NCBI GenBank assembly: GCA_051294375.1 | Contig: CM119265.1 | Span: 18,958,631 to 19,022,630 of the forward strand | Origin: Paraspadella gotoi | Taxonomy: Eukaryota; Animalia; Chaetognatha | Reading direction: 5' to 3' | Length of the DNA stretch: 64,000 bases | Notes under the pieces: model-generated | The model's database searches: none | Seen by the model: only the letters and a program-made list of their open reading frames with translations | What the model was told of the DNA's origin: nothing | In this document: in pieces, positions 20,701 to 57,273 of the stretch | Position numbering within the stretch: position 1 is the stretch's first letter | Layout: each line of letters begins with the position of its first letter | Made by a program: the position numbers and the translations under genes

Positions 20701-23024
20701 TGTGAGGGAACGAAATTTTCTCCAGAGCTGCTTGAGATCTGCTTGATTTAGTATTTGTGGGGCAGCAATGAGATGAAGTGTAAGCCAATTAGATTCCTGA
20801 ATTGACTTGACAATTTATAAAATTTTATTATTTTTCTTTTTTTTTACTGTTTTACAAGACATTAAAATCTATACAGAATCAATCACTTTTTACAAGTTAA
20901 ACGGCAAACGTTTCTATTTACGCAACGAGATGGCACGAGGTCTTATTTTTACAGTTTCGCACTTACCCAACCACCCCGACCGTTGAGGGGTTAGTCCTCA
21001 CTTTGCCCTGCGAGTCTCACCTCAGAGAAGTGGGTTTCTTATCTACTTTTATATTATCGCTAGTGGACGACGATGACGACGACGACGACAAGGACCGGCG
21101 CCCACTTAACGAAGCTCTCCCCCTTATTTTTCAACCCTCCAACCAGCCCGAGCAGGATTTTGGGAAAATGAACGGGACAACTCCAAACGCCCTCTTGGGT
21201 GTCGCCTATAAAAACAAAACCCGCACAGGTTCAATTGGAAAAACGAAAAGGAAACAATTGTTGTATACCTGCAAATATATGGTAAACATGTTTTAAAGTT
21301 ATTGATTATTGCGTTACCTATTCGTAGTTGTTGTGTTTCAATTAAAATTTGTGAAAAGCTTTTTACCATAAAAAATATTCTTTTTTTTAATCCAATTAGC
21401 CTATTTACCTTTTACATACGAAACTTTTACATATAATTTTACAATTTTTTTACATGTATCATGCATTTTTCAATAAAAGTTAAAGAATCTCTTGGAGCCC
21501 TTCGTAGCGTCGTAAAATCTTGGTTGTCGAGGTCGTAATTAAGTAAAACAGTAGTGAAAGTAAAACAAACTTTTTCCCGAGCCAAAAATCGACGACTTTA
21601 AGGCAACTTGTGACCCTTCTTTTCATTTCATAATTTCACCATTTGGTTCTTTTATTAGCTCCTTTTCACACCTGGCCATTACGCTCTCACGAGACAGCCG
21701 CGCCCCTAAAACACAGTATCATGAATCATGGTACTCGGGTAACCACGTCGATCAAAACTTTTCCAGAACCCCATTCTCGAACCCTTTCTCTCATNNNNNN
21801 NNNNNNNNNNNNNNNNNNNNNNNNNNNNNNNNNNNNNNNNNNNNNNNNNNNNNNNNNNNNNNNNNNNNNNNNNNNNNNNNNNNNNNNNNNNNNNNNNNNN
21901 NNNNNNNNNNNNNNNNNNNNNNNNNNNNNNNNNNNNNNNNNNNNNNNNNNNNNNNNNNNNNNNNNNNNNNNNNNNNNNNNNNNNNNNNNNNNNNNNNNNN
22001 NNNNNNNNNNNNNNNNNNNNNNNNNNNNNNNNNNNNNNNNNCGCCGCCGACTCCGCCGCAGCCGCTCATAAGACAATTAACCCGAACCTCTGTCACCACC
22101 GCCTTCCTCGCCACCATCGCACACTGCCTGATTTTCTAAAAAGACCTCCAGGTTAACGCCCTGCTCCTTCCTCTCCCTGCCTATCTCATACACACTGCCT
22201 GATTTTCTAAAAATACCTCGAGGTTAACGCTAAAATCCCCATTAACCTGACATCAATGTAACCAAATGCTAACTGTTCAACCAGAATATAATTCTTAATT
22301 AAGATAAACCTGGGTAAACCAATACATCAAAGTCAGATAGGAAAATTCATAAAACCTAGTTCTCTCTTTATTATTTTTGATGTTTGACTTGTTCACTGGT
22401 AAAGCATATTTCTCCCTTAAAACTCAAAACCGCAAAAAACCAGAACAGACCATATTAGTTATAATAGCCAAAACCGATTACTAACTTATAAAACTTATCA
22501 CTTTTTAAATATAATAAACCTGTTTAAACCAGTAACGTAGTTAATTTCTTATATATTTTGGCAAATTTCTTTGTTTGAATACCTCATTGGAAAAATCAAT
22601 TCTCTCTTAATTTGAAAAATCGCAATGAATCGCATCAAACACAGACTAAGTAAACCTTTCTTTATCTAATAAAACCTATAGATATTATCTATTAGATAAT
22701 ACCAGCAGAGATAAACCTGGTTAAACGAGTGACATAAAGTAAAAAAAATATATTTGTAAAATTTTTAAATGTAAAATACATGAAGTATGTTAAGAAAAAA
22801 ATATTTTATACATATGAAAATATAACATTTGTCCTTATGCACTAAGGCGTAGTGAAAGTTACATACGAAAATTTTAAAAATCAATTATGAACAACATACC
22901 ATCAGTGAACATTAATTTATAATAAAAATTAATTTTTAAAAAAAATTTTCGCAGTAGGCTATATTTATATATAGTACTATCCTTATAAAATCAAAAAATT
23001 TCAAAATAGGCTTTTCCTAATTTT
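14766..23024 (+). repeat. About 4.2-kb direct tandem duplication (copy 1 14766-18988, copy 2 18989-about 23024)
   Basis: Both copies begin gctttttacccccc..tggtcccc.ttaa.gaagacgcggggtaa and end aaatttcaaaa(t)taggcttttcctaattt. They are colinear throughout but differ by many 1-nt indels. Copy 2 contains two N gaps. Confidence 0.9.
17800..18137 (+). repeat. About 70-bp minisatellite (ctgcctgattttctaaaaagacctccaggttaacgccctgctccttcctctccctgcctatctcatacaca)
   Basis: About 4.5 noisy units here versus about 1.5 units at 22125-22230 in the duplicate copy. Confidence 0.8.
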
Positions 23025-29679: not shown

Positions 29680-32600
29680 ACACTCTCTTACACACTCTCT
29701 CTCTCTTACTCTCTTACACACTCTCTCTCTCTTACACTCTTTTCTCTCTCTACACCTCTCTCTCTTCACTCTCTTACATCTCTCTTCACACTCTCTCTTT
29801 CTCTACACACTCTCTACTCTCTTCATCTCTTACACTCTCTTACACTTCTCTCTCTTACACTCTCTCTACACTCTCCTCTTACACTCTCTACACTTACACT
29901 CTCTCTCTTCTTCTTACACTCTCTCTCTCTCTTTTACACTCTCTTACACTCTCTCTCTCTCTTACACTCTCTTACACTCCTCTCTTACAGCTCTCTCTCT
30001 CTTGACCACTCTCTCTCTCTTCACTCATCTCTCTCTCTCTCTTACACTCTTCTCTCTCTCTTACACTCTCTCCTCTCTCTTACACTCTCTTCACTCTCCT
30101 CTCTAACTCTCTAACACTCTCTCTCTCTTACACTCTTACACACTCTCTCTCTCTTACACTCTCTTCCTCTCTCTCTCTTACACTCTCTCTCTCTCTTACA
30201 CTCTCTTACACTCTCTCTCTCTCTTACACTCTCTAAACACTCTCTCTCTCACACTCTCTCTCTCTCTTTGATTCATACGACTCTCTCTCTCTCTTACACT
30301 CTCTTACACTCTCTCTCTCTCTTACACTCTCTCTCTCTATACACCCTCTCTTACAGCTCTCGTCTCTACACTCTCTTACAGCTCTCTCTCTCTCACTACT
30401 CTCTCTCTCTTACACTCTCTCTCTCTCTTACACTCTCTCTCTTCTCTTACTCTCTCTCTTACACTCTCTCATCTCTCTTACACTCTCCATCTCCTCTTAC
30501 ATCTCTTACATCTCTCTCTCTCTTACACCTCTCTTACATCTCGTCTCTCTCTCTTACACTCTCGTACACTCTCTTCTTACACTCTCTCTCTCTCTTACAC
30601 TCTTCTCTCTCTCTTACACTCTCTTAACTCTCTCTCTCTCTTACACTCTCTTACACTCTCTCTCTTCTCTTACACTCTCTCTCTCTCTTACACTCTCTAC
30701 ATCTCTCTCTCTCTTTACATCTTTACTTCTTCTCTTACACTCTCTTACTCTCTCTGCTTACACTCTCTCTCTCTCTCTTACACACTCTCTCTCTTACACT
30801 CTCTCTCTCTTACACTTCTTACATCTCTCTCTCTCTTCACTCTCTTACACTCCTCTCTCTCTACCTCTCTCTCTCTACACTCTGCTCTCTCTACACTCTT
30901 CTCTCTCTCACTCTCTCCTCTCTTACACTCTCTCTTCTCTCTTACACTCTCTCTCTCTTACACTCTCTCTCTCTCTTACACTCTTCCTCTCTTATCCTCT
31001 CTACACTCTCTCTCTCTCTACACTCTCTTCTTTCACTCTCTTCTCTCTTACCACTCTCTTACACTCTCTCTCTCTTACACTCTCTTACATTCTCTCTCTT
31101 CATCTCTTACACTCTCTTACACTCTCTCTCTCTTACACTCTCTCTCTCTCTTACACTCTCTTACACTCTCTCTCTCTCTTACACTCTCTTACACTCTCTC
31201 TCTTCTTACACTCTCTTACACTCTCTCTCTCTCTTACAACTCTCTCTCTCTCTCTTACCATCTCTCTCTCTCTTACACTCTCTCTCTCTCTTACACTCTC
31301 TTACACTCTCTCTCTCTCTTAACTCTCTTACACTCTCTCTCTTACACTCTCTCTCTCTCACTCTCTCTCTCTCTCTTACTCTCTCTCCTCTCTCTTACAC
31401 TCTCTCTCTCCTTACACTCTCTTCTCTTTACACTCTCTCTCTCTCTTACACTCTTTCTCCTTACTCTCTCTACACTCTCTCCTCTCTCTCTCTCTTCTCA
31501 CTCTCTCTCTCTCTCTCTCTTACACTCTCTCTCTCTCTCTCTACACTCTCTCTCTCTCTTACACTCTCTCTCTCTCTTACACTCTCTTACACTCTACTCT
31601 CTCTCTTACACTCTACTCTCTCTCTTACACTCTCTCTCTCTCTTACACTCTCTCTCTCTTACACTCTCTTACATCTCTCTCTCTCTACACTCTCTCTCTC
31701 TACACTCTCTCTCTCTCTTACACTCTCTTACACTCTCTCTCTCTTCACTCTCTTACACTCTCTACACTCTCTCTCTCTCTACCTCTTACACTCTCTCTTT
31801 ACACTCTCTCTCTCTCTTACACTCTCCTCTCTCTCTCTTCACCTCTCTCTCTCTCTTACACTCTCTTACACTCCTCTCTCTCTTCACTCTCTACACACTC
31901 TTCTCTCTTACACTCTCTCTCTCTTCTTACACTCTCTCTCTCTCTTACACTCTCTCACTCTCTCTCTCACACTCTCTCTTCCTCTTACACACTCTCTCTC
32001 TCTACACTCTCTACACCTCTCTCTCTACACTCTCTCTCTCTACACTCTCTTACACTCTCTCTTACACTCTCTTACACTCTCTCTCTCTCTTACACCTCTC
32101 ACACTCTCTCTCACACTCTCTCTCTCTCTTACACTCTCTCTCTCTCTTACACTCTCTCTCTCTCTTACACTCTCTTACACTCTTCTCTCTCTTACACTCT
32201 CTTACACTCTCTCTCTCTCTTACACTCTCTTACACTCTCTCTCTCTCTTACACTCTCTTCCTCCTCTCTCTCTCTTACACTCTCTTACACTCTCTCTCTC
32301 TCTTACACTCTCTTACATCTCTCTCTCTCTTCACACTCTCTCTCTCTCTTACACTCTCTCTCTCTCTTACACACTCTCTCTCTCTCTTACACGCCTTCAC
32401 TCTCTCTCTACTACACTCTCTTACACTCTCTCTCTCTCTTACACTCTCTTACACTCTCTCTCTCTCTTACACTCTCTTACACTCTCTCTCTCTCTTACAC
32501 TCTCTTACACTCTCTCTCTCTCTTACACTTCTTACACTCTCTCTCTCTTACACTCTCTCTCTCTCTCTTACACTCTCTTACACTCTCTCTCTCTCTTACA

Positions 32601-35600
32601 CTCCTCTTACACTCTCTCTCTCTTACCTCTCTTACACTCTCTCTCTCTTACACTCTCTCTCTCCTCTTACACATCTCTCTCTCTTACACTCTCTCTCTCT
32701 CTTACACTCTCTACACTCTCTCTCTCTTACACTCTCTTACACTCTCTCTCTTACACTCTCTCTCTTACACTCTCTCTCTCTCTTTACCTCTCTCTCTCTC
32801 TTACACTCTCTCTCTCTCTTACACTCTCTCTCTCTCTTACACTCTCTCTTCTCTTACACTCTCTTCTCTTACACTCTCTCTCTCTCACTCTCTCTCTTCT
32901 CTTACTCTCTCTCTCTCTCTCTCTCTTACACTCTCTCTCTCTCTTACACTCTCTCTCTCTCTTACACTCTCTCTCTCTTTACACTCTCTAACTCTCTCTC
33001 TCTCTTACACCTCTCTCTCTCCTTACACTCTCTCTCTCTTACACTCTCTCTCTCTCTCTCACACTCTCACCTCTCTCTCTCTACACTCTCTCTCTCTCTT
33101 ACACTCTCTCTCTCTCTTACACTCTCTTACACTCCATCTCTCTTACACTCTCTTACATCTCTCTTACACTCTCTCTCTCTCTTACACTCTCTACACTCTC
33201 TCTCTTACACTCTCTCTCTCTCTTACACTCTCTCTCTCTCTCTTACACTCCTCTCTCTCTCTTACACTCTCTTACACTCACTCTCTCTCTCTTTACACTC
33301 TCTTACACATCTCTCTCTCTTACACTCTCTTACACACTCTCTCTCTCTTCACTCTCTTACACACTCTCTCTCTCTACACTCTCTCTCTCTCTTACACTCT
33401 CTCTCTCTCTTACACTCTTTACACTCTCTCTCTCACACTCTCCTCTTTCTCTTACACACTCTCCCTCTCTTACACTCTCTTACACTCTCTCTTCTCTTAC
33501 ACTCTCTTCTCTTACATTCTACTCTCTTACACTCTCTTACACTCTCTCTCTCTCTTACACTCTCCTTACACTTCCTCTCTCACACCTCTCTCTCTTCACT
33601 CTCTCTCTCTCTTACACTCTCTCTCTCTCTTACACTCTCTTCTACACTCTCTCTCTCTCTTACACTCTCTTACATCTCTCTCTCTCTTACACTCTCTTAC
33701 ACTCTCTCTCTCTCTACACTCTCTTACGACTCTCTCTCTCTCTACATCTCTCTTCTCTCTTACATCTCTCTCTCTCTTACACCTCTCTCATCTCTTACAC
33801 TCCTCTCTCTCTTACTACACTCTCTCTCTCTTACACTCTCTTACACTCTCTCCTTTACACTCTCTTACACTCTCTCTCTTACACTCTCTACACTCTCTCT
33901 CTCTCTTACACTCTCTTACACTCTCTCTCTCTCTTACACTCTCTCTTCACTCTCTCTCTTCTTACACTCTTAACACTCTCCTCTCTCTTACACTCTCTCT
34001 CTCTTACACTCTCTCTTACTCTCTCGTCTACTTCTCCTCCTCCTCTTACACCTCTCTTACACTCTCTTTACACTCTCCTCTCTTACACTCCTCTCTCTTA
34101 CACCTTTCTCTCTCACTCTCTCTCTCTCTTACACTCTCTTACACTCTCTCTCTCTTACACTCTCTTACACTCTCTCTCTCTCACTCTCTCTTCTCTCTCT
34201 ATTCCTCTCTCTCTCTCTCTCTTACACTCTCTCTCTCTCTACACTCTCTCTCTCTCTAACTCTCTCTCTCTCTTACACTCCTCTCTCTCTTACACTCTCT
34301 CTCTTACACTCTCTCTCTCTCACTCTCTCTCTTTCTCTTACTCTCTCTCTCTCTCTCTCTCTTACACTCTTCTCTCTCTCTTACACTCTCTCTCTCTCTA
34401 CACTCTCTCTCTACACTCTCTTACAACTCTCTCTCTCTTACACTCTCTTACACTCTCTCTCTCTCTTACAGCTCTCCTTACACTCTCTCTCTCTCTCACA
34501 CTCTCTCTTACATCTCTCTCTCTTACATCTCTCTCTCTCTCTTACACTCTCTTACACTCTCTCTCTCTCTTACACTCTCCTACACTCTCTCTCTCTCTTA
34601 CACTCTTTTACACTCTCTCTCTCTTACACTCTCTTACACTCTCTCTCTCTCTTACACTCCTCTCTCTCTTACACTCTCTCTCTCTCTCTTACACCTCTCT
34701 CTCTCTCTTACACTCTCTTACACTCTCTCTCTCTCTACACTCTCTTACTACACTCTCTACTCTTACACTCTCTACTTACACTCTCTCTCTCTTACACTCT
34801 CTCCTCTCTTAACTCTCTACACTCTCTCTCTCTCTTACACTCTCTACACTCTCTCTCTCACATCTCTCTCTCTCTTACACACTCTCTCTCTCTCACCTCT
34901 TACACTCTCTCTCTCTCTTACACCTCTCTTCTCTTACACTCTCTTACACTCTCTCTCTCTTACACTCTCTTACACTCTCTCTCTCTACACTCTCTCTCTC
35001 TCTTACACTCTCTCTCTCTCTCTTACACTCCTCTCTTCTTACACTCTCTTACACTCTCTCTCTTCTACATCTCTCTTACACTCTCTCTCTCTCTTACACT
35101 TCTCCTCTCTCTACACTCTCTCCTCTCTCTCCTTACACTCTCTACACTCTCTCTCTCTCTTACACTCTCTCTCTCTCTTACTCTCTCTCTGCTCTCTTAC
35201 ATTTCCTCTTCCTCTTACACTCTCTCTCTTCTACACTCTCTTACATCTCTCTCTCTCTTACACTCTCTTACACTCTTCTCTCTTCTTACACTCTCTTACA
35301 CTCTCTCTCTTACACTCTCTCTCTCTCTACCTCTCTTACACTCTCTTACACCTCTCTCTCTCTCTTACACTCTCTCTCTCTTACACTCTCTCTCTCTCTT
35401 ACACTCCTTTACACTCTCTCTCTCTTACACCTCTCTTACACTCTCTCTCTCTTACACTCTCTCTCTCTCTTTAACACTCTCTCTCTCTTACACTCTCTCT
35501 CTCTCTTACACTCCTCTTACACATCATCTCTCTCTTACACTCTGTACACTCTCTCTCTCTCTTACACTTCTCTCTCACTTCTCTCTTCTTCCTCTCTCTC

Positions 35601-38580
35601 TCTCTCTTACACTCTCTCTCTCTCTCTTACACTCTCTCTCTCTCTCTTACACTCTCTCTCTCTCTTACACTCTCTCTCTCTACACTCTCTCTCTCTTACC
35701 TCTCCTCTTACACTCTCTCTTCTCACCTCTCCCCACCTCTTCTCTACTCTTCTCTCTCTTCTTACACTCTCTCTCTCTCTCTTACACCTCTCTCTCTCTT
35801 ACACTCTCTCTCTCTCTTACACTCTCTCTCTACACTCTCTTACACTCTCTCTTCTTACACTCTCTTACACCTCTCTCTCTCTTACATCTCTCTCTCTACA
35901 CTCTCTCTCTCTCTCACACTCTCTTACACTCTCTCTCTCTCTTACACTCTCTTACACTCTCTCTCTCTCTTACACTCTCTCTCTTACACTCTCTTACACT
36001 CTCTCTCTCTCTTACACTCTCTCTACTCTCTACTCTCTCTCTACACTCTCTTACACACTTTCTCTCTCTTACACTCTCTCTCTCGTACACTCTCTCTCTC
36101 TCTTACACTCTCTCTCTCTCACACTCTCTTCTCTCTCTTACACTCTCTCTCTCTCTACACTCTCTCTTCTCTCTTACACTCTCTCTCTCTCTTACACTCT
36201 CATCTCTCTTAAACTCTCTCTCTCTTACACTCTCTCTCTCTCTTACACCCTCTCTCTCTCTCCTCTCTACACTCTCTTACACTCTCCTCTCTCTCTTACA
36301 CTCTCTTACACTCTCTCTCTCTTACACTCTCTTACACTCTCTCTCTCTCTTACACTCTCTTACACTCTCTCTCCTCTCTTACACTCTCTCTCTTTCTTAC
36401 ACCTCTTACACTCTCTCTTCTCTCTTACACTCTCCTACACTCTCTCTCTCTCTTACACTTCTCCTACACTCTCTCTCTCTTTACATCTCTCCTACACTCT
36501 CTCTCTCTCTACACTCTCTTACACTCTCTCTCTCTCTTACACTCTCTTACCACTCTCTCTCTTCTTACACCTCTCTCTTACACTCTCTCTCTCTCTTACA
36601 CTCTCCTTACACCTCTTACACACTCTCTCTCTCTTACACTTCTACACTCTCTCTCTCTTTCACTCTCTCTCTCTCTACACTCTCTTAACTACCCTCTCTC
36701 TCTACACTCTCTCTTACACTCTCTTCTCTTACACTCTCTTACATCTCTCTCTCTACACTCTCTCTCGTCTTAACTCTCTCCTAACTCCTCTCTCTCTTAC
36801 ACTCTTCTCTTTACACTCTCTTACACTCCTCTCTCTCTACTCTCTTACACTCTCTTACACTCTCTCTCTCTCTTACACTCTCTCTCTTCTTACACTCTCT
36901 CTCTCTACACTCTCTTACACTCCTCTCTCTTACACTCTCCTCTCTCTCTTACACTCTCTCTCTCTCTCTTACACACTCTCTTCTCTTCTACACTCTCTCT
37001 CTCCTCTTACCTCTCTCTCTTACACTCTCTCTCTATCTACACTCCTTACACCTTCTTCTCGTCTTACACTCTCTCTCTCTTACACATTCCTCTCTCTAAA
37101 CTCTCTCTTTCTCTCACTCTCTCTCTCTCTACACTCTCTTACACTCTCTCTCTCTATACACTCTCTTCTCTCTTACACTCTCTCTCTCTTACACTCTCTC
37201 TCTCTCTTACAACTCTCTCTCTCTCTTACACACTAATCTCTCTCTTACACACTCTCTCTCTCTCTTACACACTTCTCTCTCTCTCTTACACACGCTCTCT
37301 CTCTCTTCACACTCTCTCTCTTACACACTTCTTCACTCTCTCCTCTCTTGTCACTATCTTACTATCTTCTTACACACTCTCTCTCTCTCCTCTTACCTCT
37401 CATTTCTCACTCTCTCGACTCTCTATGCACACTCTCTCTCTCTTACACTCTCTGACTCTCTCATCTCTTACACTCTCTCATACTCTCTATCCCTCACTCT
37501 CTCCTCTTTACACTTCTTACACTCTCTTCTCTCTTACACTCTCTTACACTCTCTCTCTCTCCTCTCTCTCTATGATACACTCTCTCTCTCCTCTTACACA
37601 CTCTTTCTCTCTTTACACACTCTCTCTCTTTTTACACACTCTCTCTCTCTTACACACTCTTCTCTCTTACACACTCTCTCTCTCTACACACTCTCTCTCT
37701 CTTACACACTCTCTCTCTCTTACACTCTCTTTACACTCTCTCGCTCTCTACACACTCTCTCTTCTCTTCACTTCTCTCTCTCTCTACTTACTCTCTCTCT
37801 CTCTTACATCTCTCTCTCTCTTACACTTTCTCTTACACTCTCTCTCTCTTACTCTCTCTCTCTTACACTCTCTCTCTTTCTTACACACTCTCTCTCTCTA
37901 CACCTTTCTCTCTCTTACACACTCTCCTTCTCTACACACTCTCTCTCTCTCTTACACTCTCTTTACACTCTCTCACTCTTACACACTCTCTCTCTCTTAC
38001 ACTCTCTTAACTCTCTCTCTCTTACACTCTCTCTCTCTCTTTACCACTCTCTCTCTCTCTTTACACCACTCTCTCTCTCTTACTCTCTTTACACTCTCTC
38101 TCTCTTACACTCTCTACACTCTTCTCTTTCTCTTACACTCTCTTACACTCTCTTACACTCTCTTACATCTCTTACACTCTTCTCTTCTTACACTCTCTCT
38201 CTCTCTTACACTCTCTTACACTACTCTCTCTCTTACACACTCTCTCTCTCTTACACACCTCTCTCTCTTACACACTCTCTTTCTCTTCACACTCTCTCTC
38301 TTACACTCTCACTCTCTCTCTTACACTCTCTTTTCTCTCTTACACTCTCTCTCTCTCTTACACTCTCTCTCCTTACCACTCTCTCTCTTACACACTCTCT
38401 CTCTCTTACACACTCTCTCTCTCTTACACTTTCTCTCTCTCTCTTACACTCTCTACACTCTCTCACTATTACACACTCTCTTTGTCTTCTTACACACTCT
38501 CTCTCTCTTACAACTTCTCTTACACTCCTCTCTCTGCTTAACTCTTTTCTCCTCTACACTCTCTTACACTCTTCTCTCTG
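29680..38580 (+). repeat. (CT)n-TTACA satellite array, about 8.9 kb
   Basis: Units TTACACTCTC (10 nt) and TTACACTCTCTCTCTCTC (about 16-18 nt), often alternating. Many random indels. Confidence 0.97.
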
Positions 38581-38877
38581 TCAACCATATGAAGAGGGAA
38601 TTCAATTTTTAAGAATAAGATCAAAACATCTACTTAGTTATTAACCAATGAGAGACCAGATAGTTCAAATTCAGGTATAAAATTTAACCAATTAGAGACA
38701 TTAAACAGAGATATGGAGTCATTCAATTAAAACTTAAAACTCAGATATTTGAGCCCATTAAAAAATAAAGGTCAGGGNNNNNNNNNNNNNNNNNNNNNNN
38801 NNNNNNNNNNNNNNNNNNNNNNNNNNNNNNNNNNNNNNNNNNNNNNNNNNNNNNNNNNNNNNNNNNNNNNNNNNNNN

Positions 38878-41800
38878 AGGAGAGAGAAGTGTAAGAGGGT
38901 GTTGAGAGGAGAGAGAGTATGAGTGTAAGAGAGTGTAAAGCGAAGAGAGAGTAGAGTGTAAGAGAGTGTACTAGAGAGAGAGAGCTCGCTGTAAAAGAAG
39001 AGTGAGAGAGTGTTTAAGAGAGTGTAAAAGAGAGAGAGAGAGAGTGTAAGAGAGAGAGAGAGTGGTAAGAGAGAGAGGAGAGTGTGTAAGAGAGTGAGAG
39101 ATGTAAGAGTTAAAGAGAGAGAGGAGTAAGTAAGAGGACACGAGAGAGTGTAAATGAGGAGGGACTTGTGAAGAAGTGGTAGAGAGGCAGAGTAAGAGAG
39201 AGAGATGTCGTAGAGGAGGAGAGTGTAGAGAGAGAGAGAGTGTAAGAGAGAGAGTTGTTAGGTGATTGAGTAGAAAAGAGAGAGAGAGTTTGTGTAAAAG
39301 AGAGGATGGTTATAGAGACAGAGCTGTAAGAGAGAGAGTGTGTTGAAGAGAGAGAGAGTATGTTAGAGAGAGAGGAGTCGTGTGTGAAGAGAGGTAAGAG
39401 AGGGTTGTTGTAAGAGAGTTAAGAGAGAAATGTGCTAAGAGAGTGTAAGAGAGAGAGAGAGTGTAAGAGAGTGTAGAGAAGGAGAGTGAGATGGGAGAGA
39501 AGGCCAAGAGTGTAGAGAGAGATAGTGGTAAGAGAGAGAGAGAGAGTTGTGTATAGAGAGAGAGATGAGAGAGAGAGATGTTAAAGCAGTAGTGTAAGAG
39601 AGAGCAGAGAAGTGCTAAGAGAGTGTAAGAGAGAGATGAGAGAGCAAGAGGAGGTAGAGAGAGTGTAAGATATGTAAGAGAGATGAGAGTGTAAGAGAAG
39701 TTGGTGAGACGAGAGAGTGTATAAGAGAGTGTAAGAGAGAGAGAGAGTGTAAGAGAGTGTAAGCAGAGAGAGAGTGTAAGAGAGAGTGTAAGAGAGGTGT
39801 AGAGAGCAGAGTAGTTGAGAGAGTGTAGAGAGAGAGTAGCAGTAGTAGAGAAGAGTGCTAAGGAGAGGACTTAAGAGAGGTAGAGAGAGGTGTGAGAGAA
39901 AGAGAAGAGTGTAAGAGAGTGTAAGAAGAGAGAGAGAGTGTAGAGAGTTGTAAGAGAGGAAGAGAGTTTAAGTTGTAGAGAGAGGTGTAAGAGAGAGAGA
40001 AGGAGAGTGTAAGAGAGAGAGAGTGTGTAAGAGAGAGAGAAGTGTCCAGAGGTAGCAGTTGTAAGAGAAGAGAGAGAGTGTAAGAGAGTGTAAGAGAGAG
40101 AGAGAGAGTGTAAAGAGAAGTGTAATGAGAGAGAGAGAGAGAGTTGTAAGGAGAAGAGAGAGTTTAAGAGAGTGTAAGATGAGAGAGTGTAAGAGAGTTG
40201 TAAGAGAGAGAGAGTGTAAGAGAGAGAGAGAGAGGTAAGAGAGTGTAAGAGAGAGAAGAGAGTGATAAGCAGAGAGAGAGAGAGTGTAAGACGAGAGAGA
40301 GAGTGTAAAGAGAGTGAGAGTGATAAGAGAGGAAGGAGATGTAGAGAGAGTAGAGCAGTGTAAGAGAGGGTGTAAAGAGGAGAGAGAGAGTGTTAAGAGA
40401 GTGTAAGAGAGAGAGAGTGTGAATGGAAGAGTAAGAGAGTGTTAAGAGAGGTAAGTGAGAGAATGTGTAAGAGAGTGTTAAGAAGAGAGACGAGTGTGTG
40501 TCAATTAGAGTGCTTTGTAAGAAGAGACGAGATGTGTAGTGTAGTAGAAAGAGTGTGTAAGAGAGAGTGGTAAGAGAGAGAGTGTGTATGAGTAAGAAGA
40601 GTGGTGTAAAGAGAGAGGAAGAGAAGTGTAAGAGAGAGGTGTTAAGAGAAGAGAGAGAGTGTAAAGAGTGTAAGAAGAGAGAGTGATGGAGTAGAGGTTA
40701 GGAGAGAGAAGAGTGTGTAGAGAGAGAGAGGTGTAAAGAGAAGAGAGAGAGTGTTGTAAGAGAGAAGAGGATAGTAGAGAGGGGTGTAGAGAGAGAGAGA
40801 GTGTAAGAGGAGAGGCAGTGTAAGGAGTGTTAAGAGAGAGAGAGAGTGTAAAGAGAGTGTAAGAAGAGAGGAGAGTGTAGAGAGTGTAAGAGGAGAGAGA
40901 AGAGAGAGTGATAAGAGAGAGAGAGTGTAAGAGAGAGAGAGAGTGTAGAGAGAGAGGGAGGAGAGTGTGTCAGAGAGAGAGAGTGTGTAAGAGAGAGAGA
41001 GAGTGTAAGAGAGAGAGAGAGTGTAAGAGAGAGAGAGAGTGTAAAGAGAGTGTAAGAGAGAAGACAGAGAGTGTAAGAGAGTGTAAGAGAGAGAGAGAGT
41101 GTAAAGAGAGAGTGTAAGAGAGAGAGAGAGAGAGTGTAAGAGAGAAGAGAGAGTGTAGAGAGAGAGAGAGAGTGTGTAAGAGAGAGAGAGAGTGTGTAAG
41201 AGAGAGAGTGTAGGAAGAGGTAGGAGGTGTAAGAGAGTGTAAGAGAGAGAGAGAGTGTAAGAGAGTGTAAGAGAGAGATGAGAGTATGTAAGAGAGAGAG
41301 AGAGTTATAGAGAGAGAGAGGAGTGGTCAAGAGGAGAGAGAAGTGAGAGAGAGAAGAGTGTAGGAAGAAGAGAAGAGTGAAAGAGGGAGAGAGAGAGTGT
41401 AAGAGAGAAGAGAGGTGTGTAAGGAAGAGAGAGTGTCGTAAAGAGAGAGAGAGTGTGTAAGATTGAGAGAGAGTGGTGTAAGAAAGAGAGAGTGAGTTGT
41501 GTAAGAGAGTGTTAAGTAGAGAGTGTAAAGAGAGGTCAGATGGAGAGAGAGAGTGTGAGAGAGGGAGAGTGGAGAGAGAGAGAGAGGATAGTGAGAGAGA
41601 AGAAGTGTAAGAGAGAGAGAGATGAGATTGTAAGAGGAGAAGAGAGTGTGTAAGAGAGAGAGAGTGTGTAAGAGAGAGAGAGAGTGGTGTAAGAGAGAGA
41701 GAGTGTGTAAGAGCAGTGTAAGAGAGAGAGTGTAAGATGAGAGAGAGAGTGTAAGAGAGTGTAAGAGAGAGAGAGTGTAAGAGAGAGAGTGTCGTGTAAT

Positions 41801-44800
41801 GAAGAGTGTAAGAGAGAGAGAGAAGAGTGTAAGAGAGAGAGCAGGTGTTTTGTAGAGAGAGAAGAGAGAGTGTGTAAGAGAGAAAGAGATGTGTGTACGA
41901 GAAGAGAGAGAGTGCTGTGTAAGAGAGAGAGAGAGATGTGTAAGAGAGAGAGAGAGTGTAAGAGAAGAGAGAGTGATGTTAAGAGAGAGAGAGAGAAGTG
42001 TGTAGACGAGAAGAGAGGTAGTGTTAAGAGAGAGAGAGAGTGTGTAAGAGAGTGTTAAGAAGAGTGTATCGAGAGAAGTGGTAGAGAGAGTGTAAGAGAG
42101 AGAGAGAACAGATGTGAGAGAGAGAGAGTGGTTGTAGAGAGAGAGAAGAGAGATTGTGAGAGAGGAGAGTGAGAAAGAGAGAGAGTGTCATAGAGAGAGA
42201 GAGAGAGATTGTTAAGAGAGAGAGAGTGTAAAGAGAGAGAGAGAGGTGTAAGAGCAAGAGAGATGAAGGAGTGTGGAGATAGAGAGAGTGTAAGTAGAGA
42301 GAGAAGTTTAAGAGAGAGAAGTCTAAGAGAGAGAGAGTGTAAGAGAGAGAAAGAGTGTTAAGAGATGAGAAGGGTGGGGAGAGTGTGTAAGAGAGAGAGG
42401 AGAGGAGAAGAGAGTGGGTGTAAGAGAGAGACGAGAGTGTTGTAAGAGAGAGAGAGAGTGTGTAGGAGGAAAGAAGAGAGTGTGTAAGAGAGAGAAGAGA
42501 GAGTGTGGTAGAGAGAGGTGTGTAGAGAGAGGGTAAGAGAGAGAGGTAATGAGAGGAGAGAGAGGCGTATGTGAGTAGAGAGAGAGAGAGTGTGAAGAGG
42601 AGAGAGAGCTTGTGAAGTAAGAGAGAGGTTAACAGCAGGTTAAGAGAGATGTGTAAGAGACGAGGTAGTTAAGAGTGAAGAGAGAGTGTAAGAGAGAGTA
42701 GATTGTAAGAGAGAGAAGAGGTGTAAGAGAAGAGAGAGTGTAAGAGAGAGAGAGAGTCATGTAGAGAGAGGAAGAGAGAGAGATGTATGAGAGAGACGGA
42801 GAAGTGAAGGAGAGAGTGGTGTGAAGACGAGAAGAGTGTGTAAGAGGAGAGAGATGTGATGTAAGAGAGAGAGAGTGTGTAAGAGATAGAGAGAGTGTGG
42901 TAGAGAGAGAGAGTGTGTAAGGGATGTGTGCAGAGAGAGGCTGTGTTAAGTGAGAGAAGTGAGTGGAGAGAGTCGGATAGAGAGTGTGTAAGAAGAGAGG
43001 TGAGAGTGTGTTAAGAGAGAATGAGTAAGAGAGAGTTTGTGTAAAGAGAGAGAGGTGTTAAGAGAGAGAGAGTGTGTAAGAGAGAGAGAGTGAAGAGAGA
43101 GAGTGTAAGAGAGAGAGAGTGTTACGAGAGAGGATGTGTGAGCGGGGTAGAAGAGGAGAGAGAGAGAGAGTGGGTAAGGAGAGAGTGTGAGAGAGTGTGA
43201 GAGAGTGTAAGAGAGAGAGTGTAAGAGAGAGAGGAGTGTGTAAGAGAGAGAGAGTGTAGAAGAGAGAGAGTGTAAGAGAGAGAGAGTGTAGAGAAGAGTG
43301 TAAGAAGAAGAGAGAGATGTAGAGAGAGAGAGATGTGTAAGAGAGAAGAGTGTAAGAGAGAGAGTTGTAAGAGAGAGTGAGAGTGTAAGAGAGAGTGAGA
43401 GTGTAAGAGAGAGAGAGAGTGTGAGAGAGAGAGAGTGGTGTAAGAGAGAGAGAGTGTGTAAGAGAGAGAAGAGTGTGAAGAAGAGAGTGTGTAAGAGAGA
43501 GAGAGGTGGTAGGAGAGAGTGTAGAGAGAGAGCTGTGTAAGAGAGAGTGTAAGAGAGAGAGAGTGTAAGAGAGAGAAGAGAGTGTTGAAGATGAAGAGAG
43601 AGAGAGGTGTAAGAGAGTGTAAGAGAGAGAGAGAGTGTAAGAGAGTGTAGAGAGAGAGAGAGTGTAAGAGAGAGAGAGATGTGTAAGAGAGAGAGAGTGT
43701 GTAAGAGAGAGAGAGAGTGTGTAAGAGAGAGAGAGTGTAGTAAGAGAGTGTGTAAGAGAGAGAGAGGTGTGTAAGAGACGAGAGAGAAGATGTGTAAGAG
43801 AGAGAGAGTGTGTAAAGAGAGAGAGTGTGTAAAGAGAGAGAGAGAGAGTGTGTAAGAGAGAGAGAGAGAGTGTAGAGAGGAGAGAGTTGAGAGAAGAGAG
43901 AGTGTAAGAGAGAGAGAGAGTTGTAAGAGAGAAAGAGTGTGTAAGAGAGAGAGAGTGTGTAAGAGAAGAGAGAGTGTTGTAAGAGAGAGAGAGTAGATGA
44001 GTAGAGTGAGAGAGAGAGAGTGTAAAGAGAGAGATGTAAGAGAGAAGAGAGAGTGTAAGAAGAGAGAGTAGAAGAGAGTGTAAGAGAGAGAGAGAGAGTG
44101 TAAGAGAGAGAGGAGTGTAAGAGAGAGAGAGAGTGTAAAGAGAGAGAGAGTGTAAGAGAGAGAGAGTGTAAGAGAGAGAGAGTGTAAGACAGAAGAGAGT
44201 GTGTAAGAGAGAGAGAGTGGTGTAAGAGAGAGAGAGAGTGTAAAGAGAGAGTGTAAGAGAGGAAGAGAGGTGTTAAGAGAGAGAGAGAGTGTAAGAGAGA
44301 GAGAGATGTAAGAGAGAGAGAGTGTATAGAGAGAGAGAGTGTAAGAACAGAGAGAGTGTAAGAGCAGAGAGAGTGTAAGAGAGGAGGAGTGTGGAGAGAG
44401 AGGTGTAAGAAGAGAGAGTGTAAGAGAGAGTAGAGTGTGAAGAGAGAGAGAGTGTGAGAGAGGTGTTGAGAGAGAGAGAGCTGGAAGAGAGTAAGAGAGA
44501 AGTGTGTAAGAGAGAGAGTGTGTAAGAGAGAGAGTGTGATTAGAGAGAGAGAGGTGTAAGAGTAGAGAGAGAGCAGAGTGTCGTGAGAGAGAGTGATGTG
44601 GAGAGAGAGTGTCTGTATAGAGAGAGTGTGTAAGAGAGAGTGTGTAAGAGAGAGTTTGTAACAGAGAGATTGTAAGAGATGGAGAGTGTGAGAGAGAGAA
44701 AGAGTGTGAGAGAGAGAGAGAGTGTGAGAGAGAGAGAGTGTGTGAGAGGAGTGGTGAGAAGAGAGAGAGTGTGACGAGAGAGAGAGTGTTAGAGAGAGAG

Positions 44801-45948
44801 AGAGAGTAGATGAGAGAGAGAAGAGAGAGAGTGGTAGAGAGAGATGAGAGTGTGAAGAGAGAGGTAGAAGAGTTGTAAGAGAGTGAAGAGAGGAAGTGTA
44901 GAGAGAGAGTGTAAGAGAGTAGAGAGAGTGTAGAGAGAGAGAGTGAGAGAGAGGAGAGAGCGTGTGAGAGATGAGAGAGAGTGAAGTAGAGAGGAGTTAG
45001 AGAGAGAGAGTGTATAGTGAGAGAGTTAGAGAGAGAGAGAGGTAAGAGAGAAAGAGAGAGATGAGTGTAAGAGAGAGAGAGTGTAAGAGAGAGGAGAGAG
45101 TGTGTAAGAGAGAGAGAGAGAGTGTAAGAGAGAGTGTAGGAGAGTGGTAAGAAGAGTGTGAGAGTGAAGAGATGAGTGGAGAGTGTAAGAGAGAGTGTGA
45201 GAGTGTAAGAGAGAGAAGAGTGGTAAAGAGAGACGGAGAGTGTGTAGGAGAGAGTGTAGAGAGAGAGAGTGTAAGAGAGAGAGAGAGTGTAAGAGAGAGA
45301 GAGTGTAAGAGGAGAGAGTAGTGAGTGTAAGAGAGAGTGTAAGGAGAGAGTGTAAGAGAGAGTGTAGAGAGAGAGTGTGAGAGGTGTGTAGAGAGAGAGT
45401 GGTAAGAGAGAGAGAGAGAGTGTAAGGGTCGATAGGTATGAGAGAGAGTGTAAGAGAGAGTGTGAGAGAGAGAGAGTGTAAGAGAGAGGAGAGGTGGTGA
45501 GAGAGAAGAGAGAGAGAGAGAGAGTGTAAGAGAGAGAGTAGAGAGATGTAAGAAGAGAGAGTGTAAGAAGAGAAGAGAGTGTGAGGAGAGTGTAAGAGAG
45601 AGTGTAAGAGAGAGAGAGACTGTGAGAGAGAGATGTAGAGAGAGAGTGAAGAGAGTAGTGAGAGTAAGAGAGTGTAAGAGAGAGAGATGTGAGAGAGTGT
45701 AAAGAGGGATGATAAGAGAGAGAGTGTAAGTAGAGAGTGGGAGAGAGAGAAGTGGTAAGAGAAGAGTGTAAAGAGAAGAGAGTGTAGAGTAGGTGTAAAG
45801 AGAGGGTGTGGGGTGTGAGAAGGGGGTGTAGAGAGAGTGTAAGGAGGAGAGAGAGAGAGTGTAGGAAGAGAGCAGTGATAAGAGAGAGTGGAGAGAGAGT
45901 GTAAGAGAGAGAGAGAGAGTGTAAGAGAGAGAGAGTGTAAGAGAGAGA
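38878..45948 (-). repeat. Same (CT)n-TTACA satellite in the opposite orientation (GAGAGTGTAA on +), about 7 kb
   Basis: Reverse complement of the previous array. It starts right after a 100-N gap and is noisier. Confidence 0.97.
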
Positions 45949-46919
45949 TAATCATACTTTTTTTTGTTTTTCGGTGTAATGCTACATTATTTAACATTAT
46001 AATTTAGCTATAAAAGATATAAAGAAGAATAATTGCTTTTTAATAGAGTCAGCACGAACCTTTGGAATGATACGTTTTTTTAAAAAATACCGTCTTCGAT
46101 ACAAATGTTTTGACCAATTATTATTAATTTTGCAAAACATCTTGATCATTTGAGTGAAAAAAGGTCACGATACAATCATGGTGCGATTATGATGCGATCA
46201 CATTCGGCCTCGAAGGAATCATGGGGATTTTTTTTCTCGCCGAGATAGTGAACCCTGGGGAAACTAAAAGGAAAGGAATGATGTGAGAGAAAAGCCTCCG
46301 GATCAACGGAGCGCGTGAATTATGAATGAGGGAGTCGCAATGATTGGCCAGAAGAGAGGGAAGTGATTGATATCAGTTGGAAGCAATGATTGGAGGGTGT
46401 TAGGGCCAATGATTGACGAGAAAGGATTACAATCACTAAGGAAAAATTATTGACGACAGTCAGGCGCATTGAATGGTCAAGAGGGATTACGATCATCGGT
46501 GAATTTGGCAAAGAATAGGGAAGCGCGTGTTAACTGCTCCGTTAATTGTTCGTCTGTGGGAAAAAGAGATTTATGAATTATGATGATTGAGCGAAAAAAA
46601 TATAAAAAAAAAAAAACTCGGGGGGAAAGAACCGCGGTAGAAAGAGATTAGCGAATGTAATTTCCTCGTCAAAATCGGGAAAAGGTGGTGGGGGTTAATG
46701 TTGTTAGAAAGATGGGTAGATGGGGAGACGGGGTGTTGGTTATTTAACTGAAGGCAATCAACAGCAACGAGAAGCTTGGGAATGAGAAAAAAAAGAAGTC
46801 GGAAGACAATCAAGAAAGGAGGCGGAAATGTTAAAGGTCGTGAGGTCGTAACTCGTCAAGAAAGTCTAGCGAAGCGAAGATAACGAGGTGAGAGACTCGG
46901 AGAGAAAAAGAATTGCAAA

Positions 46920-52741: not shown

Positions 52742-53481
52742 TATTGGTGATTAACATCGTTTTATGAGGAAAACGCATATTATTTTTTGTATTGGCGTTC
52801 GCGGTGGCCAACGCGGGCGTCGCCGTTGGGGGAGAACGGCTCGACGTCCGACGGCAGAGAATTACGACATCCGAGTCCCAAGTTTCCCGATTCGCGACCA
52901 AGAGTCGCGACGACGACGACGAAGAAGAAAGGGCAATATCTGGCTTATTTTTAATGTTTGAAACCTAGCAAAAGTCAGAGGCAGTTGCCTCGTAAAGTCG
53001 CGACGTCGAACGTTTTCACGTTGCTTTTAAGGTGTTGTTTTTAAAGTGTTTTTAACGTTTTTAAACTTTGAACTGTTTTTATACATCGTCGCCAATTATT
53101 TCAATATCAATAAACATTTTTAAAACATTGTTGAATTCTCGGTCGTCTCATAAAGTCAGAAAAATTAGAGGCAGCTCAAACATTTTTATTAGAGTAATAT
53201 ATTTCGGTTAACATCGCTTAGCCATAGTTCATTTGCGAAGTAAATGCGAAAAAAGATATTTTGGTTAAAAGAGAGAGAAAGGGAGAGAATAAGAGTGAAG
53301 AGGAAAAGAATCATGAGGTCAAAGTTAAGGACAAAGTATTTTTTACTTTTTTGTGACTGTTTTTCTCGCATTTACATCGCAAATTAACTATGGATATGGT
53401 TAAGCGATGTTAACTGAAATATATTTCTAAAATAAAAATAATATTCGTTTTCCTCATAAAACGATGTTAATCACCAAAATA
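52742..53481. mobile_element. MITE-like element with about 45-bp terminal inverted repeats and an internal palindrome, in the last ACY1 intron
   Basis: tattggtgattaacatcgttttatgaggaaaacgcatattattt (from 52742) is inverted at about 53436-53481. A second inverted pair lies at about 53189-53245 versus about 53360-53430 (atatttcggttaacatcgctta / taagcgatgttaactgaaatat). Confidence 0.65.
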
Positions 53482-53853
53482 TTAGTATAGATTTAGTTGA
53501 GGGTAAAGAATTAGGTTAGGGTCGGGGGTTAGGGCTTAGGGTTAGGGAAGGGGTTATTGGGTTTGTTGACAGATTATGATTAAAGGTTACAGTAAAATTA
53601 AATTTTAAGATCTGGGATTAAACCTAAGATAAGTCGAATCGGTTGCGGCGGGAAAGACTTCCGATTTAAAGAGAACGTTTTTCGCTTCTAACGCATCGGC
53701 AAAGGCGGACCACCATTTTGAATCCGGAGAAACGTCAGTCTTTTACTGGAGTAAAAAAAAAAGTTTTGGATTAGGATTAGGATTAGACGCTATTCAAGTC
53801 TGTGAAGAAACAGTAATTATTGTTATGTGTTAGTGACAGAACCGTTAAATGTA

Positions 53854-53929
53854 AGCAGTCCCTGAGCTTCGGATCAGGCTGTAACACCGTGTTACAGGCG
53901 GGTTAAGCGTCCCGTCCCTCTTAACTGCT
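53854..53929 (-). ncRNA. Twister ribozyme-like motif, circular permutation type P5, P1 nearly absent
   Basis: Minus strand: AGCAGUU aa GAGG GACGG G acgcu UAA CCC GC CUGUAACA cgg UGUUACAG CCUGA UCCG AAGC UCAGG GACUGCU. P5 7 bp, P3 8 bp, P4 5 bp, conserved UAA / GA / AAGC; pseudoknots GC:GC and CCG:CGG. Confidence 0.75.
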
Positions 53930-54300
53930 AGGCGGCCACCGGGCTAGAACCCGCTGATGAACGGTTGGTGGATTTTAGTCCACCATATCTGAGTATTTCC
54001 TACCTGATCCATGTGTTTAAAGAGGTACGTGGCCTTGATACCTGAGTAAAGAAGCTGCCGCTTATTATTTGAAACTGACTGATATCACAATAAATTCAAA
54101 CTTCATTATTCTCAGTCGCGCACCTTCGCCTGCGTCGACGATCCACTCGTTGATGCGCCGCTCGAGTTCCTCCAAGTCTTCGTGAGGCGAAACCCGGATG
54201 TCGAAGATCGCCACCAACTCGGCCGGGACGACGTTGACTTGAACTCCGCCTCGAATGAAGGGGAGAGGACAGATAGAGAGAAAGAGAAAGAAAGAAAGAT

Positions 54301-54331
<31 letters not shown>

Positions 54332-54362
54332 GAAAGGGAAAAAAGGAAAATAAGATGAATGA

Positions 54363-54402
<40 letters not shown>

Positions 54403-57273
54403 AATAGTACTAATTTTCACTTACTATTAAGAATCGTAAGGTTGACGGTTGTGACGTCTCCCAACGTCAGCGACGTATCGTCCAACAGTTTGGCTTCTTC
54501 CTCATCTCGAAAATTCCAGAATCGATCGAGGATCTCGCGAAATTTTTCTGGAATTACAAGGAGACACACGACAACTCGCTAATTTTTATATTGTAGTATT
54601 TTTAATTATGCCATTCTTTTTATATTTTCAAGAGGTTTCAGAAGATACTTTTTTATGTAAAATTTAAAACAAGATGTTGTGTTTTTATTTCTTTCTTTTA
54701 GTTGCGTTATATATATTGGTTATATATATTGGTTGTACCAATTTCATAAATAAAAATAAAAATCGTTAAAAAAACAGATTGAAGAAAAAAAAAAAGAGTT
54801 TTAAAATGAAATACGACTTTGAAGGCAACTTTCCTCCGCTCATTGCCAAGTTAAATCAAAATCAATCAATATAAAATTAGGATATATGGACACAAGAAAA
54901 AATAACGTGCGAAACGTCTCGTGCTGATTTTTGTCCTTTAAAATCGTTTCTGCAGCCAAATTAATGATCACTACTGTTTGGTAATATGTGCGATATTACA
55001 CACTGGAACATGTCTGTATCTGACCATAACCCATTGACCATCAACAAAAAAGCTAGAGCGAAGATCAAAACAATAGTTAAAAAATGAAAGCAATATTAGC
55101 TCGAAACGCTTACAAAATTTTAGACCATTGCTTTTTTTATAATGCCCAAAAAAATATTTAATATTATTAAAACGAAAACTTTAACGATAACCTTAATAGT
55201 TAACCGAGACCAAGATGAATATTTTTACCCATCATTTTCCTTAATTTATATGAATCATTTTTGTAATTAGTCAATTAATATAAAATAACAATATGACCAG
55301 ATTCATTTTCAATTTCTTTATGAATGGGAGTTTCTCTGCTTACTCCCCTTGTGTCTAATTTATTTAATATTTTAAAGGTATGTTTCAAAACCTTATATAT
55401 TACTATATTTCACTTTTTTTCCAATTCTTTCAAACAAAAACAACATCATAAAAACATTTTAAATTATAAAAAAAAAATTGATTGAATGATTTTGCGAAAT
55501 AATATTTGAAACTTTGAGAATAATGGATTATGAGGTCAGGAAAAAAATTTTGCAATTCTTAAAAAAATCCAGCTCTAGCCTTTCAATTTTTCTAAAGGCT
55601 GATTTTTTTATTTTTTTGATATTTTTAATTTTCTATTGCAAAACATGTATTTCTCAATTGAGCATAGGTTGGATAAAATTTTTCCCAACAATTGAAAAAA
55701 TTTAACTTTTCTAATTAGGCTTTTTTTGGGGAAATAAATAATAAATTATTATACGATGGTACATCTGAAAGTGATATGTCTCTAAATGACAAAACAAATT
55801 TTTCTTTCAAGTTTTATTTTTGAAATTTTAAGTATTGGTACCACAGAAATAAGTAGATACTCCCGCTTGCCGAAAATTTTATTTAACAAAGATTTGTACT
55901 GCATAATTTTAAAAAACGTTATTTTTTTAATAACTTTTTGAAAGCAAAAGAGGTAGCAAGGTGAATGTGGTTATCAATTAAAGCCTAATCATGGGACACC
56001 TTTCTAAAGAGTTTTATTAAATTATCCATAAATTCTGTTACACAGCTTTTTGTTTAAATCAGAGTTAAAAGTAATAACAGTTTTTTGCTTTAAAAATTTC
56101 AAGAAGACATATTGAAATTTTTTCTTTTTCTTTTGTTATTTTGAAAAGGAAAGACTGAATTAATTTGTTTATTATAACTAAAATTTTTTTATTCCATAAA
56201 TTGCTTATATTTTTTCAGTTAAAGTAAAAAACAAGCAAAAATTTATGTTTAGCTTGATAAAATATTATTTTTAAATATTAAAAATGATTAAATACAAAAT
56301 TGTTTTCAGCTTGATATAAACAGTCTGGACATCTACCTTCTTGTCTGCTAAAAAAATCATCATTTCATTATCTTTAACTGCAAACTAAAAAGCTTGAATA
56401 CTGCTTGTTTATCATATTAAAGTTGTAAAAAATTATATAGCTTGGTAACATATTTGACAAAGAAAAACTTCATTGTTAATTTGTATTTGATACTTTTTTA
56501 AATATAGCAAGGAATTTTACTTCATTAAAATATTATACATCCATTTTAAATTAGAAGAATAATCATAATCTACCAATAGATACAACACCATTGGTATGAG
56601 GTCCTCTGGACTGATCTTATATGATCAAGATTCTTATTAGATTTTCATTTACTGCCCCCATTTCACAGAGATATAAAGTCATGTTATCATATCAATAAGT
56701 CCAGAATTATCTGTACCCTTTCTGCAACCTGCATTCCAAATTTTCTTTTTTCCCTTTCAAATGTATTAAAATAAAAAAATTATTTGAGGAGAACAATCCG
56801 GCGTGGAGGATGCCATTGGTAAGCCTTAGTTACCCCATTCCCTTATCGAATTTTTTAAATGAGGTTTTTTTTTTTCCATCTATTTGAGACATAACACTAA
56901 CTATTAAGTACTATTATTTTTTATTTTTTTCTATTTACAATTCAGAAAAAGAAAAGAACTTAAAAAAATTTATCATCTTTCCACCCTATATTCAGTCATC
57001 ATCAAAAAACAAAAAAAAAGATTTTGCATTTGATATTTTGATTCAGCATATGAACTATAACGCAAAAAAAAAAGAAAATTAAAATTGAAAGATTGAATAT
57101 TCAGATTTGAGGCAACTTCGGACAGCTCAATCAGTTACCAAATCTCATATTACATTAGGTCATATACAGGATTTGGGATTTTACTACAGAAAAATCTTTC
57201 AGATTAAAAAAATTTTCACAAGTTTGCAAATAACGATTTTCTAGCGGCGGGTTGTCGTGTGTCACCAATAGAT

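Follow-up and report, generated by a model that had tools for sequence, protein, structure and literature searches.

A high-copy repeat with a tRNA-like region and a predicted twister in Paraspadella gotoi, a likely solo LTR of a Helenus-like mini-retrotransposon

We present a 185-bp repeat lodged in an intron of an ACY1-like gene of the chaetognath Paraspadella gotoi, found within a 64,000-nucleotide stretch of contig CM119265.1 (hereafter the window). It is one copy, with an internal deletion, of a repeat present in many copies, and we consider it reasonably probable that it is the solo LTR of a small non-autonomous Helenus/TRIMp3-like element whose LTR unites a likely Pol III promoter with a predicted twister ribozyme. 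Directly observed are its repetitive nature, where it ends, a single 4-bp duplication, letters of tRNA-like character that include a B box, and the core bases and helices of the twister. We advance more tentatively, as a proposal that could well fail, the reading of the family as an animal LTR retrozyme, i.e., a Pol III mini-LTR element with an active twister, the transcripts of which are cut, circularized and inserted by Gypsy machinery. The coordinates of all features are collected in Table 1.

Table 1. Features of the repeat copy and its surroundings, in window coordinates
Feature	Position	Strand	Remarks
Whole repeat copy	53803..53987	minus	185 bp; termini TA...CA on minus strand; likely solo LTR
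Target-site duplication (TSD), left copy TCTG	53799..53802		exact 4-bp flank repeat
Target-site duplication (TSD), right copy TCTG	53988..53991		exact 4-bp flank repeat
5' terminal hairpin, 6 bp	53967..53984	minus	upstream of the tRNA-like part, in a U3-like position; pair probabilities 0.86-1.0
Outer stem, 5' arm	53958..53966	minus	encloses tRNA-like part and ribozyme; 7 bp in the window copy
Outer stem, 3' arm	53840..53848	minus	pairs with 53958..53966
Deletion point	53951..53952	minus	about 49 bases absent relative to most copies (47 unaligned letters plus 2-base overlap)
tRNA-like remnant	53933..53953	minus	T-arm/B-box 53951-53941 and 3' strand of acceptor-like stem 53938-53933; from sequence and fold
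Predicted P5-permuted twister	53854..53929	minus	descriptor match; match to own model; P3-P5 helices in fold
Twister P5	53929-53924/53859-53854	minus	
Twister P2	53919-53917/53902-53900	minus	one A.C mismatch
Twister GA-CGG	53916-53912	minus	GA before T1 strand
Twister P1 linker, 6 bases		minus	P1 at most one G-U pair
Twister UAA	53905-53903	minus	predicted cut between 53905 and 53904
Twister T2	53899-53898/53867-53866	minus	
Twister P3	53897-53890/53886-53879	minus	
Twister P4	53878-53874/53865-53861	minus	
Twister L4 UCCGAAGC	53873-53866	minus	
Host intron, ACY1-like gene	53746..54003	minus	258 bases, GT...AG ends

The repeat was delineated by placing public contigs from five sequencing runs (X1, X2, X4, X7 and X9), which belong to three studies of a single species and are not independent of each other, on the region 53300-54500 (X1, X2, X4 and X7) or 53600-54270 (X9). 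At 53803, loose contig ends with unrelated flanks numbered 134, 161, 89, 28 and 31 in the respective runs; at 53987 they were recovered in four of the five (165, 169, 85 and 37 in X1, X2, X4 and X9), this end being absent from the six rows listed for X7. Agreement of the flank letters beyond either end is about 0.4. Both ends of the element are thus sharp and common to runs of the three studies, and these loose ends replace the cassette of about 160 bp at 53833..53990 that had been delimited in the initial annotation. The flanking TCTG is the sole exact flank repeat among the tested lengths of 2-20 (chance about 0.008), giving a 4-bp target-site duplication in the one copy with readable flanks (1/1). 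The majority flank letters to the left of 53803 read ...ATAT in all five runs, and those to the right of 53987 read ATAT... in two of four, with AAAT and AATT in the other two. The element ends display no terminal inverted repeat, the TGT...ACA arrangement being absent. Its 3' end on the minus strand (...CTTCA) stops sharply at 53803, with no poly(A) or simple-repeat tail. We favor an LTR because the ends are fixed and lie away from the predicted cut site, because of the 4-bp duplication and the ATAT bias, and because the termini are TA...CA. The Drosophila Gypsy elements 17.6, 297, Quasimodo, rover and Transpac are likewise reported to use a 4-bp ATAT target (PMC4344482).

The summed depth over the cassette in X1 reaches 2.4 million, against about 78 on the flanks, with a like contrast in X2 and X4, i.e., a difference of four orders of magnitude between element and flank. 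Division by the single-copy depth, with and without a factor of 31 for overlapping contigs, yields rough bounds of 438 to 22,096 copies, although summed depth does not equal copy number. Hence, as had been surmised earlier, the element is a member of a dispersed family with defined ends and at least hundreds of copies, and clearly not a single-copy sequence. There is no second copy within the 64-kb window; searches with family sequence patterns returned no matches in viral contigs or in metagenomes, and a looser pattern returned two loci, both unrelated to the element. CpG sites account for 12 of the 23 transitions listed among the family variants, which points to methylated, ageing copies. 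The window copy departs from 91-99% of the family depth at 53847, 53851 and 53910, and the commonest polymorphism of the family, at 53889 (44% in X1), sits in the P3 loop of the predicted twister.

Head-to-tail joints from 53987 to 53803 were seen in three contigs of X1, four of X2 and two of X4, at approximately single-copy depth, among the 15 of 51 joints listed, which also include nested and inverted joints between copies and no joint that skips the element (an empty site). None was found in X7 or among the six joints of X9, and the filled insertion site is present in X1, X2 and X4. These head-to-tail joints could represent full elements or chance neighbors. The small number of such joints among so many copies would fit few full elements among many solo LTRs, by analogy with the retrozymes of Nicotiana benthamiana, for which nine full-length loci are reported among hundreds (PMC9695139).

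The host gene is as initially annotated: the intron has GT-AG ends and three of the four exon pieces match TIGR01880, the fourth having been given out of frame. The intron would measure 69 bases without the element and one copy of the duplication, and the element is oriented in the sense of the ACY1-like gene. The run X7, though guessed to be DNA, is very likely a spliced RNA run, because its record 25 spans exactly the exon 53624-53745 and because a single record of depth 91.1 lying on this exon and the next accounts for its bin depths (8.89, 80, 75.6 and 13.3). X9, guessed to be RNA, covers the element and not the ACY1-like gene, and hence says nothing on expression. In X7, 295 contigs match the compared stretch, the family among them, its own transcripts and parts of host RNAs being indistinguishable in contigs. 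Near the predicted cut site, the depth at 53889 is lower in X7 and X9 (0.48 and 0.68) than in the DNA runs (1.0-1.5), and weakly lower at 53910, a difference to which we attach no weight, since contigs are blind to RNA ends. We also observed that the spliced X7 record uses a CAG acceptor (53748-53746, minus strand) that places a TAA in frame in ACY1, and that a second AG six bases further on would hold the frame open (window 53739-53748). The CAG may be an unproductive acceptor, or reflect a pseudogene allele or read-through. A further ACY1 exon upstream, near 57430, looks frameshifted by eye as well. The next ACY1 intron contains a second multi-copy repeat, AT-rich and with an inverted local copy (53341-53500, 53182-53254 and 52744-52787), with summed depth up to 60,000-75,000 (X1, X2).

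Elsewhere in the window, two long TC-rich/GA-rich satellite arrays (29700-38600 and 38900-46000) lie in opposite orientation around an assembly gap and form a quasi-palindrome of roughly 16 kb. The segments 14766-18988 and 18989-23023 are a tandem duplicate with about 85% identity and many indels, and could stem from misassembly or from haplotypes that were not collapsed. Both of its copies carry CTGATGA inside a hairpin (15425 and 19616, minus strand) with no clear hammerhead fold. At 1118-2548 (plus strand) lies a spermine/polyamine oxidase-like gene without introns; its closest relatives among animals share about 30% identity with it. Protein relatives mark the host as an animal, the best of them being about 30-34% identical.

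The internal structure of the family unit is more extensive than that of the window copy. High-agreement loose ends (0.64-0.86) occur behind 53952 in all five runs and before 53951 in four of five, with a 13-letter overlap; the window copy is thus internally deleted and the family unit measures about 234 bp. Read by eye on the minus strand from the loose ends, the extra bases (about 49) make up two-thirds of a tRNA-like region, at its 5' side. They include a degenerate A-box-like motif, absent from the window copy and located about 40 bases before the B box in the family unit, as well as the 5' partner of 53938-53933 in an acceptor-like stem. The remnant in the window copy retains a B-box-like GGTTCTAGCCC (53951-53941, minus strand), the earlier-noted likeness of which to GGTTCRANNCC holds at all positions other than R. 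We take the tRNA-like region of the family to resemble tRNA-Gly; ARAGORN predicted no tRNA genes in the deleted window copy. This region, which begins about 35 bases inside the element and is preceded by a hairpin-bearing stretch common to the family, is likely to be a Pol III promoter of the tRNA type, judging from its letters.

The predicted fold recovers further elements of the initial annotation. The T-arm-like hairpin at 53940-53953 has 4 bp with a pair probability of 0.99, and the 5' terminal hairpin is present as well. AACCGTT and AACGGTT close an outer stem around the ribozyme, with five of seven pairs at probabilities of 0.91-0.98 and the other two at 0.37 and 0.73; the family majority letter at 53847, a C (97.5% of depth in X1), extends this stem to 9 bp. 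The cassette was also rightly described as GC-balanced in an AT-rich intron, with 49% GC in the element against 34% in the remaining 73 bases of the intron. Its fold stability is modestly unusual (z of -2.1 on the minus and -2.2 on the plus strand). There is no run of four Ts on the minus strand within the window copy, the first being at 53762.

These data bear directly on the label of SINE or animal retrozyme first attached to the cassette. In such a scheme, the twister would process the Pol III transcripts of a tRNA-derived SINE, or of a non-LTR retrozyme of the animal type, and the reverse transcriptase of a LINE or Penelope element would insert them. The tRNA-like region with its B box, the short length and the high copy number would all suit such an element, as would the lack of any PBS or PPT among what was seen; moreover, Schistosoma twisters are tied to non-LTR RTE/Perere-3 elements (PMC8501958) and schistosome hammerhead repeats are reported to contain tRNA (PMC4918200). 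However, SINE-type copying cannot rebuild the element, because a single Pol III transcript would miss the approximately 35 bases upstream of the tRNA-like start and would be cut midway, leaving half a template. Unlike a tRNA-derived SINE, the element does not have its 5' end at the tRNA-like start, carries no tail, and shows a 4-bp duplication with both ends fixed. Animal retrozymes are described as tandem arrays with longer duplications (PMC7229834), and the metazoan non-LTR type as arrays of type I hammerheads, whereas here we find dispersed copies with unique flanks, no hammerhead, and 2-4 head-to-tail contigs per DNA run. Furthermore, the end of Perere-3 is the cut site itself, which in the window element is internal. 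We therefore do not retain this label and consider such an origin unlikely, if still the foremost competitor of a solo LTR.

The twister call of the initial annotation holds for the core bases, both pseudoknots and the P3-P5 helices, and falters in that P1 and P2 are weak and Rfam gives no match. Relative to the Rfam consensus, the core is complete, with the UAA cut site, the GA before the T1 strand, the GC, and U...AAGC in L4. Both pseudoknots can pair (T1 as CCG/CGG at three of three positions, T2 as GC/GC), the pairs of P4 and P5 have probabilities of 0.84-1.0, and five of the eight pairs of P3 reach 1.0. P2 has two of three pairs (or three with a bulge) and P1 one G-U pair; the outer P2 pair is A.C as against G-C in all 28 controls, which had been pre-selected for a paired P2. 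For the window, Rfam returned nothing at gathering level; at E up to 10 it gave five weak matches, none of them a ribozyme or a tRNA. As controls we used natural P5 twisters from 40 scanned loci, 11 of them Rfam-positive. A descriptor written after the sequence had been seen, demanding the core bases, both pseudoknots, at least four pairs in P4 and at most one mismatch in P2, matched once in the window (53919-53861) and recovered eight of the 11 Rfam-positive control loci; it matched none of 20,000 shuffles of the element and none of 200 shuffles of the non-satellite window. With a model built from 28 natural P5 twisters (R1), the site ranks first in the window at 15.5 bits (E 0.11). We accordingly grade the motif as twister-like, below the threshold of the family model and not a member of RF02684. 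It shares with type-P5 twisters the order of parts, the core bases GA-NNN, UAA, GC and U-NNN-AAGC, and the 3-bp P2 spacing, but differs in a nearly absent P1, a long P3, the P2 mismatch and a swapped T1 pair, and it falls below the Rfam thresholds.

The T1 pseudoknot CCG/CGG in place of CCC/GGG amounts to a compensatory swap. Among 20 distinct natural matches in which P1, P2 and P4 are complete, three (L057, L058 and L061) show the same swap, as do L014 and L056 (37.6 and 40.6 bits), while the two unmatched T1 combinations are found in no locus and no structured case among the natural sequences. These natural P5 twisters with GACGG/UCCGAAGC lie at L057 146-210, L058 148-201, L061 148-202, L056 147-208 and L014 297-348; L014 is missed by the Rfam gathering threshold, and L057 is on a phage contig that carries several canonical twisters. 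In the minimum-energy fold of the window copy (-28.1 kcal/mol), the T1 strand is engaged by the P2/T2 strand; the active helices, taken without pseudoknots, reach -20.1 kcal/mol. Twister cleavage without P1 is reported to be inefficient (PMC8501958). Taken together, we read the motif as a real but atypical predicted twister, probably partly blocked. Three other configurations were considered and dropped: GAGGG (53920-53916) as the T1 strand, which leaves P2 with none of three pairs and T1 with two of three; a 6-bp hairpin masking the UAA, which has an ensemble probability of 0.0, the competing fold being another; and a plus-strand hammerhead at CTGATGA 53954, where neither GAAA nor NUH stands in register and the motif runs into an arm of the outer stem.

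We deem improbable a reading in which the repeat derives, as a solo LTR, from a Gypsy element that is autonomous and codes for protein, or from a TRIM with a decayed and inactive twister. The end features fit it equally well, P1 and P2 are weak family-wide (with no variant at 53919 among 40 of the 44 rows listed), a competing fold exists, and the CpG decay among the listed transitions implies many old copies. Against decay, GA, UAA and both pseudoknots of the core are intact and the commonest polymorphism falls in the P3 loop; against an autonomous parent, Kojima argues that autonomous partners must rely on Pol II, and that extensive LTR sharing between them and TRIMp3 elements is unlikely (PMC10886601).

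An equally improbable reading makes the repeat a non-autonomous DNA element of MITE- or Helentron-like nature, with a captured tRNA/twister piece, in which the inverted repeat of AACCGTT and the hairpin at the terminus would serve as transposase signals, with the ribozyme as a passenger. Helentron ends combine an asymmetric subterminal inverted repeat with a terminal palindrome, an arrangement that the window element recalls, and the sharp ends and the weak ribozyme score are in keeping with it; yet there is no terminal inverted repeat, the inner inverted-repeat arm stands 37 bases from its end, Helentrons are not known to make a 4-bp duplication such as that seen here, and promoter-like part and ribozyme share a strand, in an order that would work.

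The solo LTR reading finds its closest counterpart in Helenus, the TRIMp3 elements of Kojima (2024), which are defined by a tRNA-like sequence in the LTR, a PBS and a PPT; in animals they show a 4-bp duplication, leave solo LTRs and borrow Gypsy machinery (PMC10886601). The window element resembles them in its tRNA-like sequence inside a short LTR-sized unit, its GGTTC B box, its 4-bp duplication and its likely state as a solo LTR such as Helenus leaves, and several Helenus LTRs also start with TA and end with CA. It differs in bearing a twister 3' of the tRNA-like part, in having no run of four Ts after that part, and in lacking the TGT...ACA inverted repeat of most animal Helenus (PMC10886601). 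Against the LTR reading, neither a PBS nor a polypurine tract nor an internal part has come to light, and the A-box side, where Helenus has TRGCY and YGG, holds a degenerate motif and does not show TRGCY. The available text of the Helenus paper contains no use of 'twister' and reports no ribozyme in Helenus, and a search for four L4 motifs in its LTR consensus file, where line breaks can hide motifs, found none (PMC10886601).

In that consensus file (Data S1, PMC10886601), we noticed what by eye looks like a canonical type III hammerhead in the LTRs of Helenus-2_SyJa and Helenus-2_SyUm from Synergus wasps, placed 3' of the tRNA-like part. It comprises a GUC triplet, the motifs CUGAUGA and GAAA, stems I, II and III of 7, 4 and 5 bp, and loops that are complementary to each other over 12 bases; the text available to us of that paper makes no mention of it. 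These families share with the window element the order U3, tRNA-like part, ribozyme, end, as well as the want of a T4 run and the 4-bp duplication, but have an apparent hammerhead rather than a twister, and their internal parts with a PBS are known (PMC10886601). On this reading by eye, they would be animal LTR retrozymes.

The plant LTR retrozymes (Cervera et al. 2016, PMC4918200) offer a second parallel to the element as interpreted here: a self-cleaving ribozyme in an LTR-like unit, a 4-bp duplication, many solo LTRs and a ribozyme predicted in a blocked fold. They differ in that their ribozymes are hammerheads and their LTRs 300-400 bp, with no tRNA-like promoter reported, and in that their circles have been shown by experiment (PMC4918200). 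Finally, the twister variants at the 5' ends of Perere-3 (RTE) in Schistosoma mansoni (Liu et al. 2021, PMC8501958) have in common with ours the P3, a weak P1 and residence in an animal retroelement. They are of the P1 type, cut at the 5' end and belong to an autonomous non-LTR element, unlike the P5-permuted, internal motif of this non-coding element.

For the plant retrozymes, the proposed model has the RNA cut in both LTRs, circularized and copied by Gypsy enzymes (PMC4918200). We posit a comparable course for the full chaetognath element, which would consist of an internal part between two LTRs. Transcription by Pol III would begin in the first LTR, encounter no four-T run there, and continue across the primer site and the polypurine tract as far as the second LTR. 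One cut by the twister in each LTR, at its predicted site, would release a unit-length RNA, which a host RtcB-type ligase would circularize. A Gypsy-type reverse transcriptase and integrase acting in trans would then copy and insert the element with a 4-bp duplication, solo LTRs arising by LTR-LTR recombination or from short cDNAs. The window copy, having lost its A-box side, is itself likely a dead passenger in the ACY1 intron.

In the open-access literature surveyed, we found no twister-bearing LTR or TRIM element in print. Reviews place LTR retrozymes in plants only, with hammerheads, and describe animal retrozymes as being without LTR, PBS and PPT (PMC7761336, PMC7229834). Eukaryotic twisters are tied to the 5' ends of non-LTR elements (PMC8501958, PMC7761336, PMC9695139), and circular RNA from paired twisters is described as having so far been an engineers' design (PMC7229834). 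If true, a twister in a Pol III LTR would constitute a second genomic role for twisters and link TRIMp3 elements to retrozymes, and it would predict abundant natural circular RNA made by paired twisters. Together with the wasp hammerheads, it would mean that TRIMp3 elements swapped the Pol III terminator for a ribozyme more than once, with different ribozyme classes serving one step, and the wasp Helenus-2 families make the idea of a ribozyme in the LTR testable at once in named public genomes.
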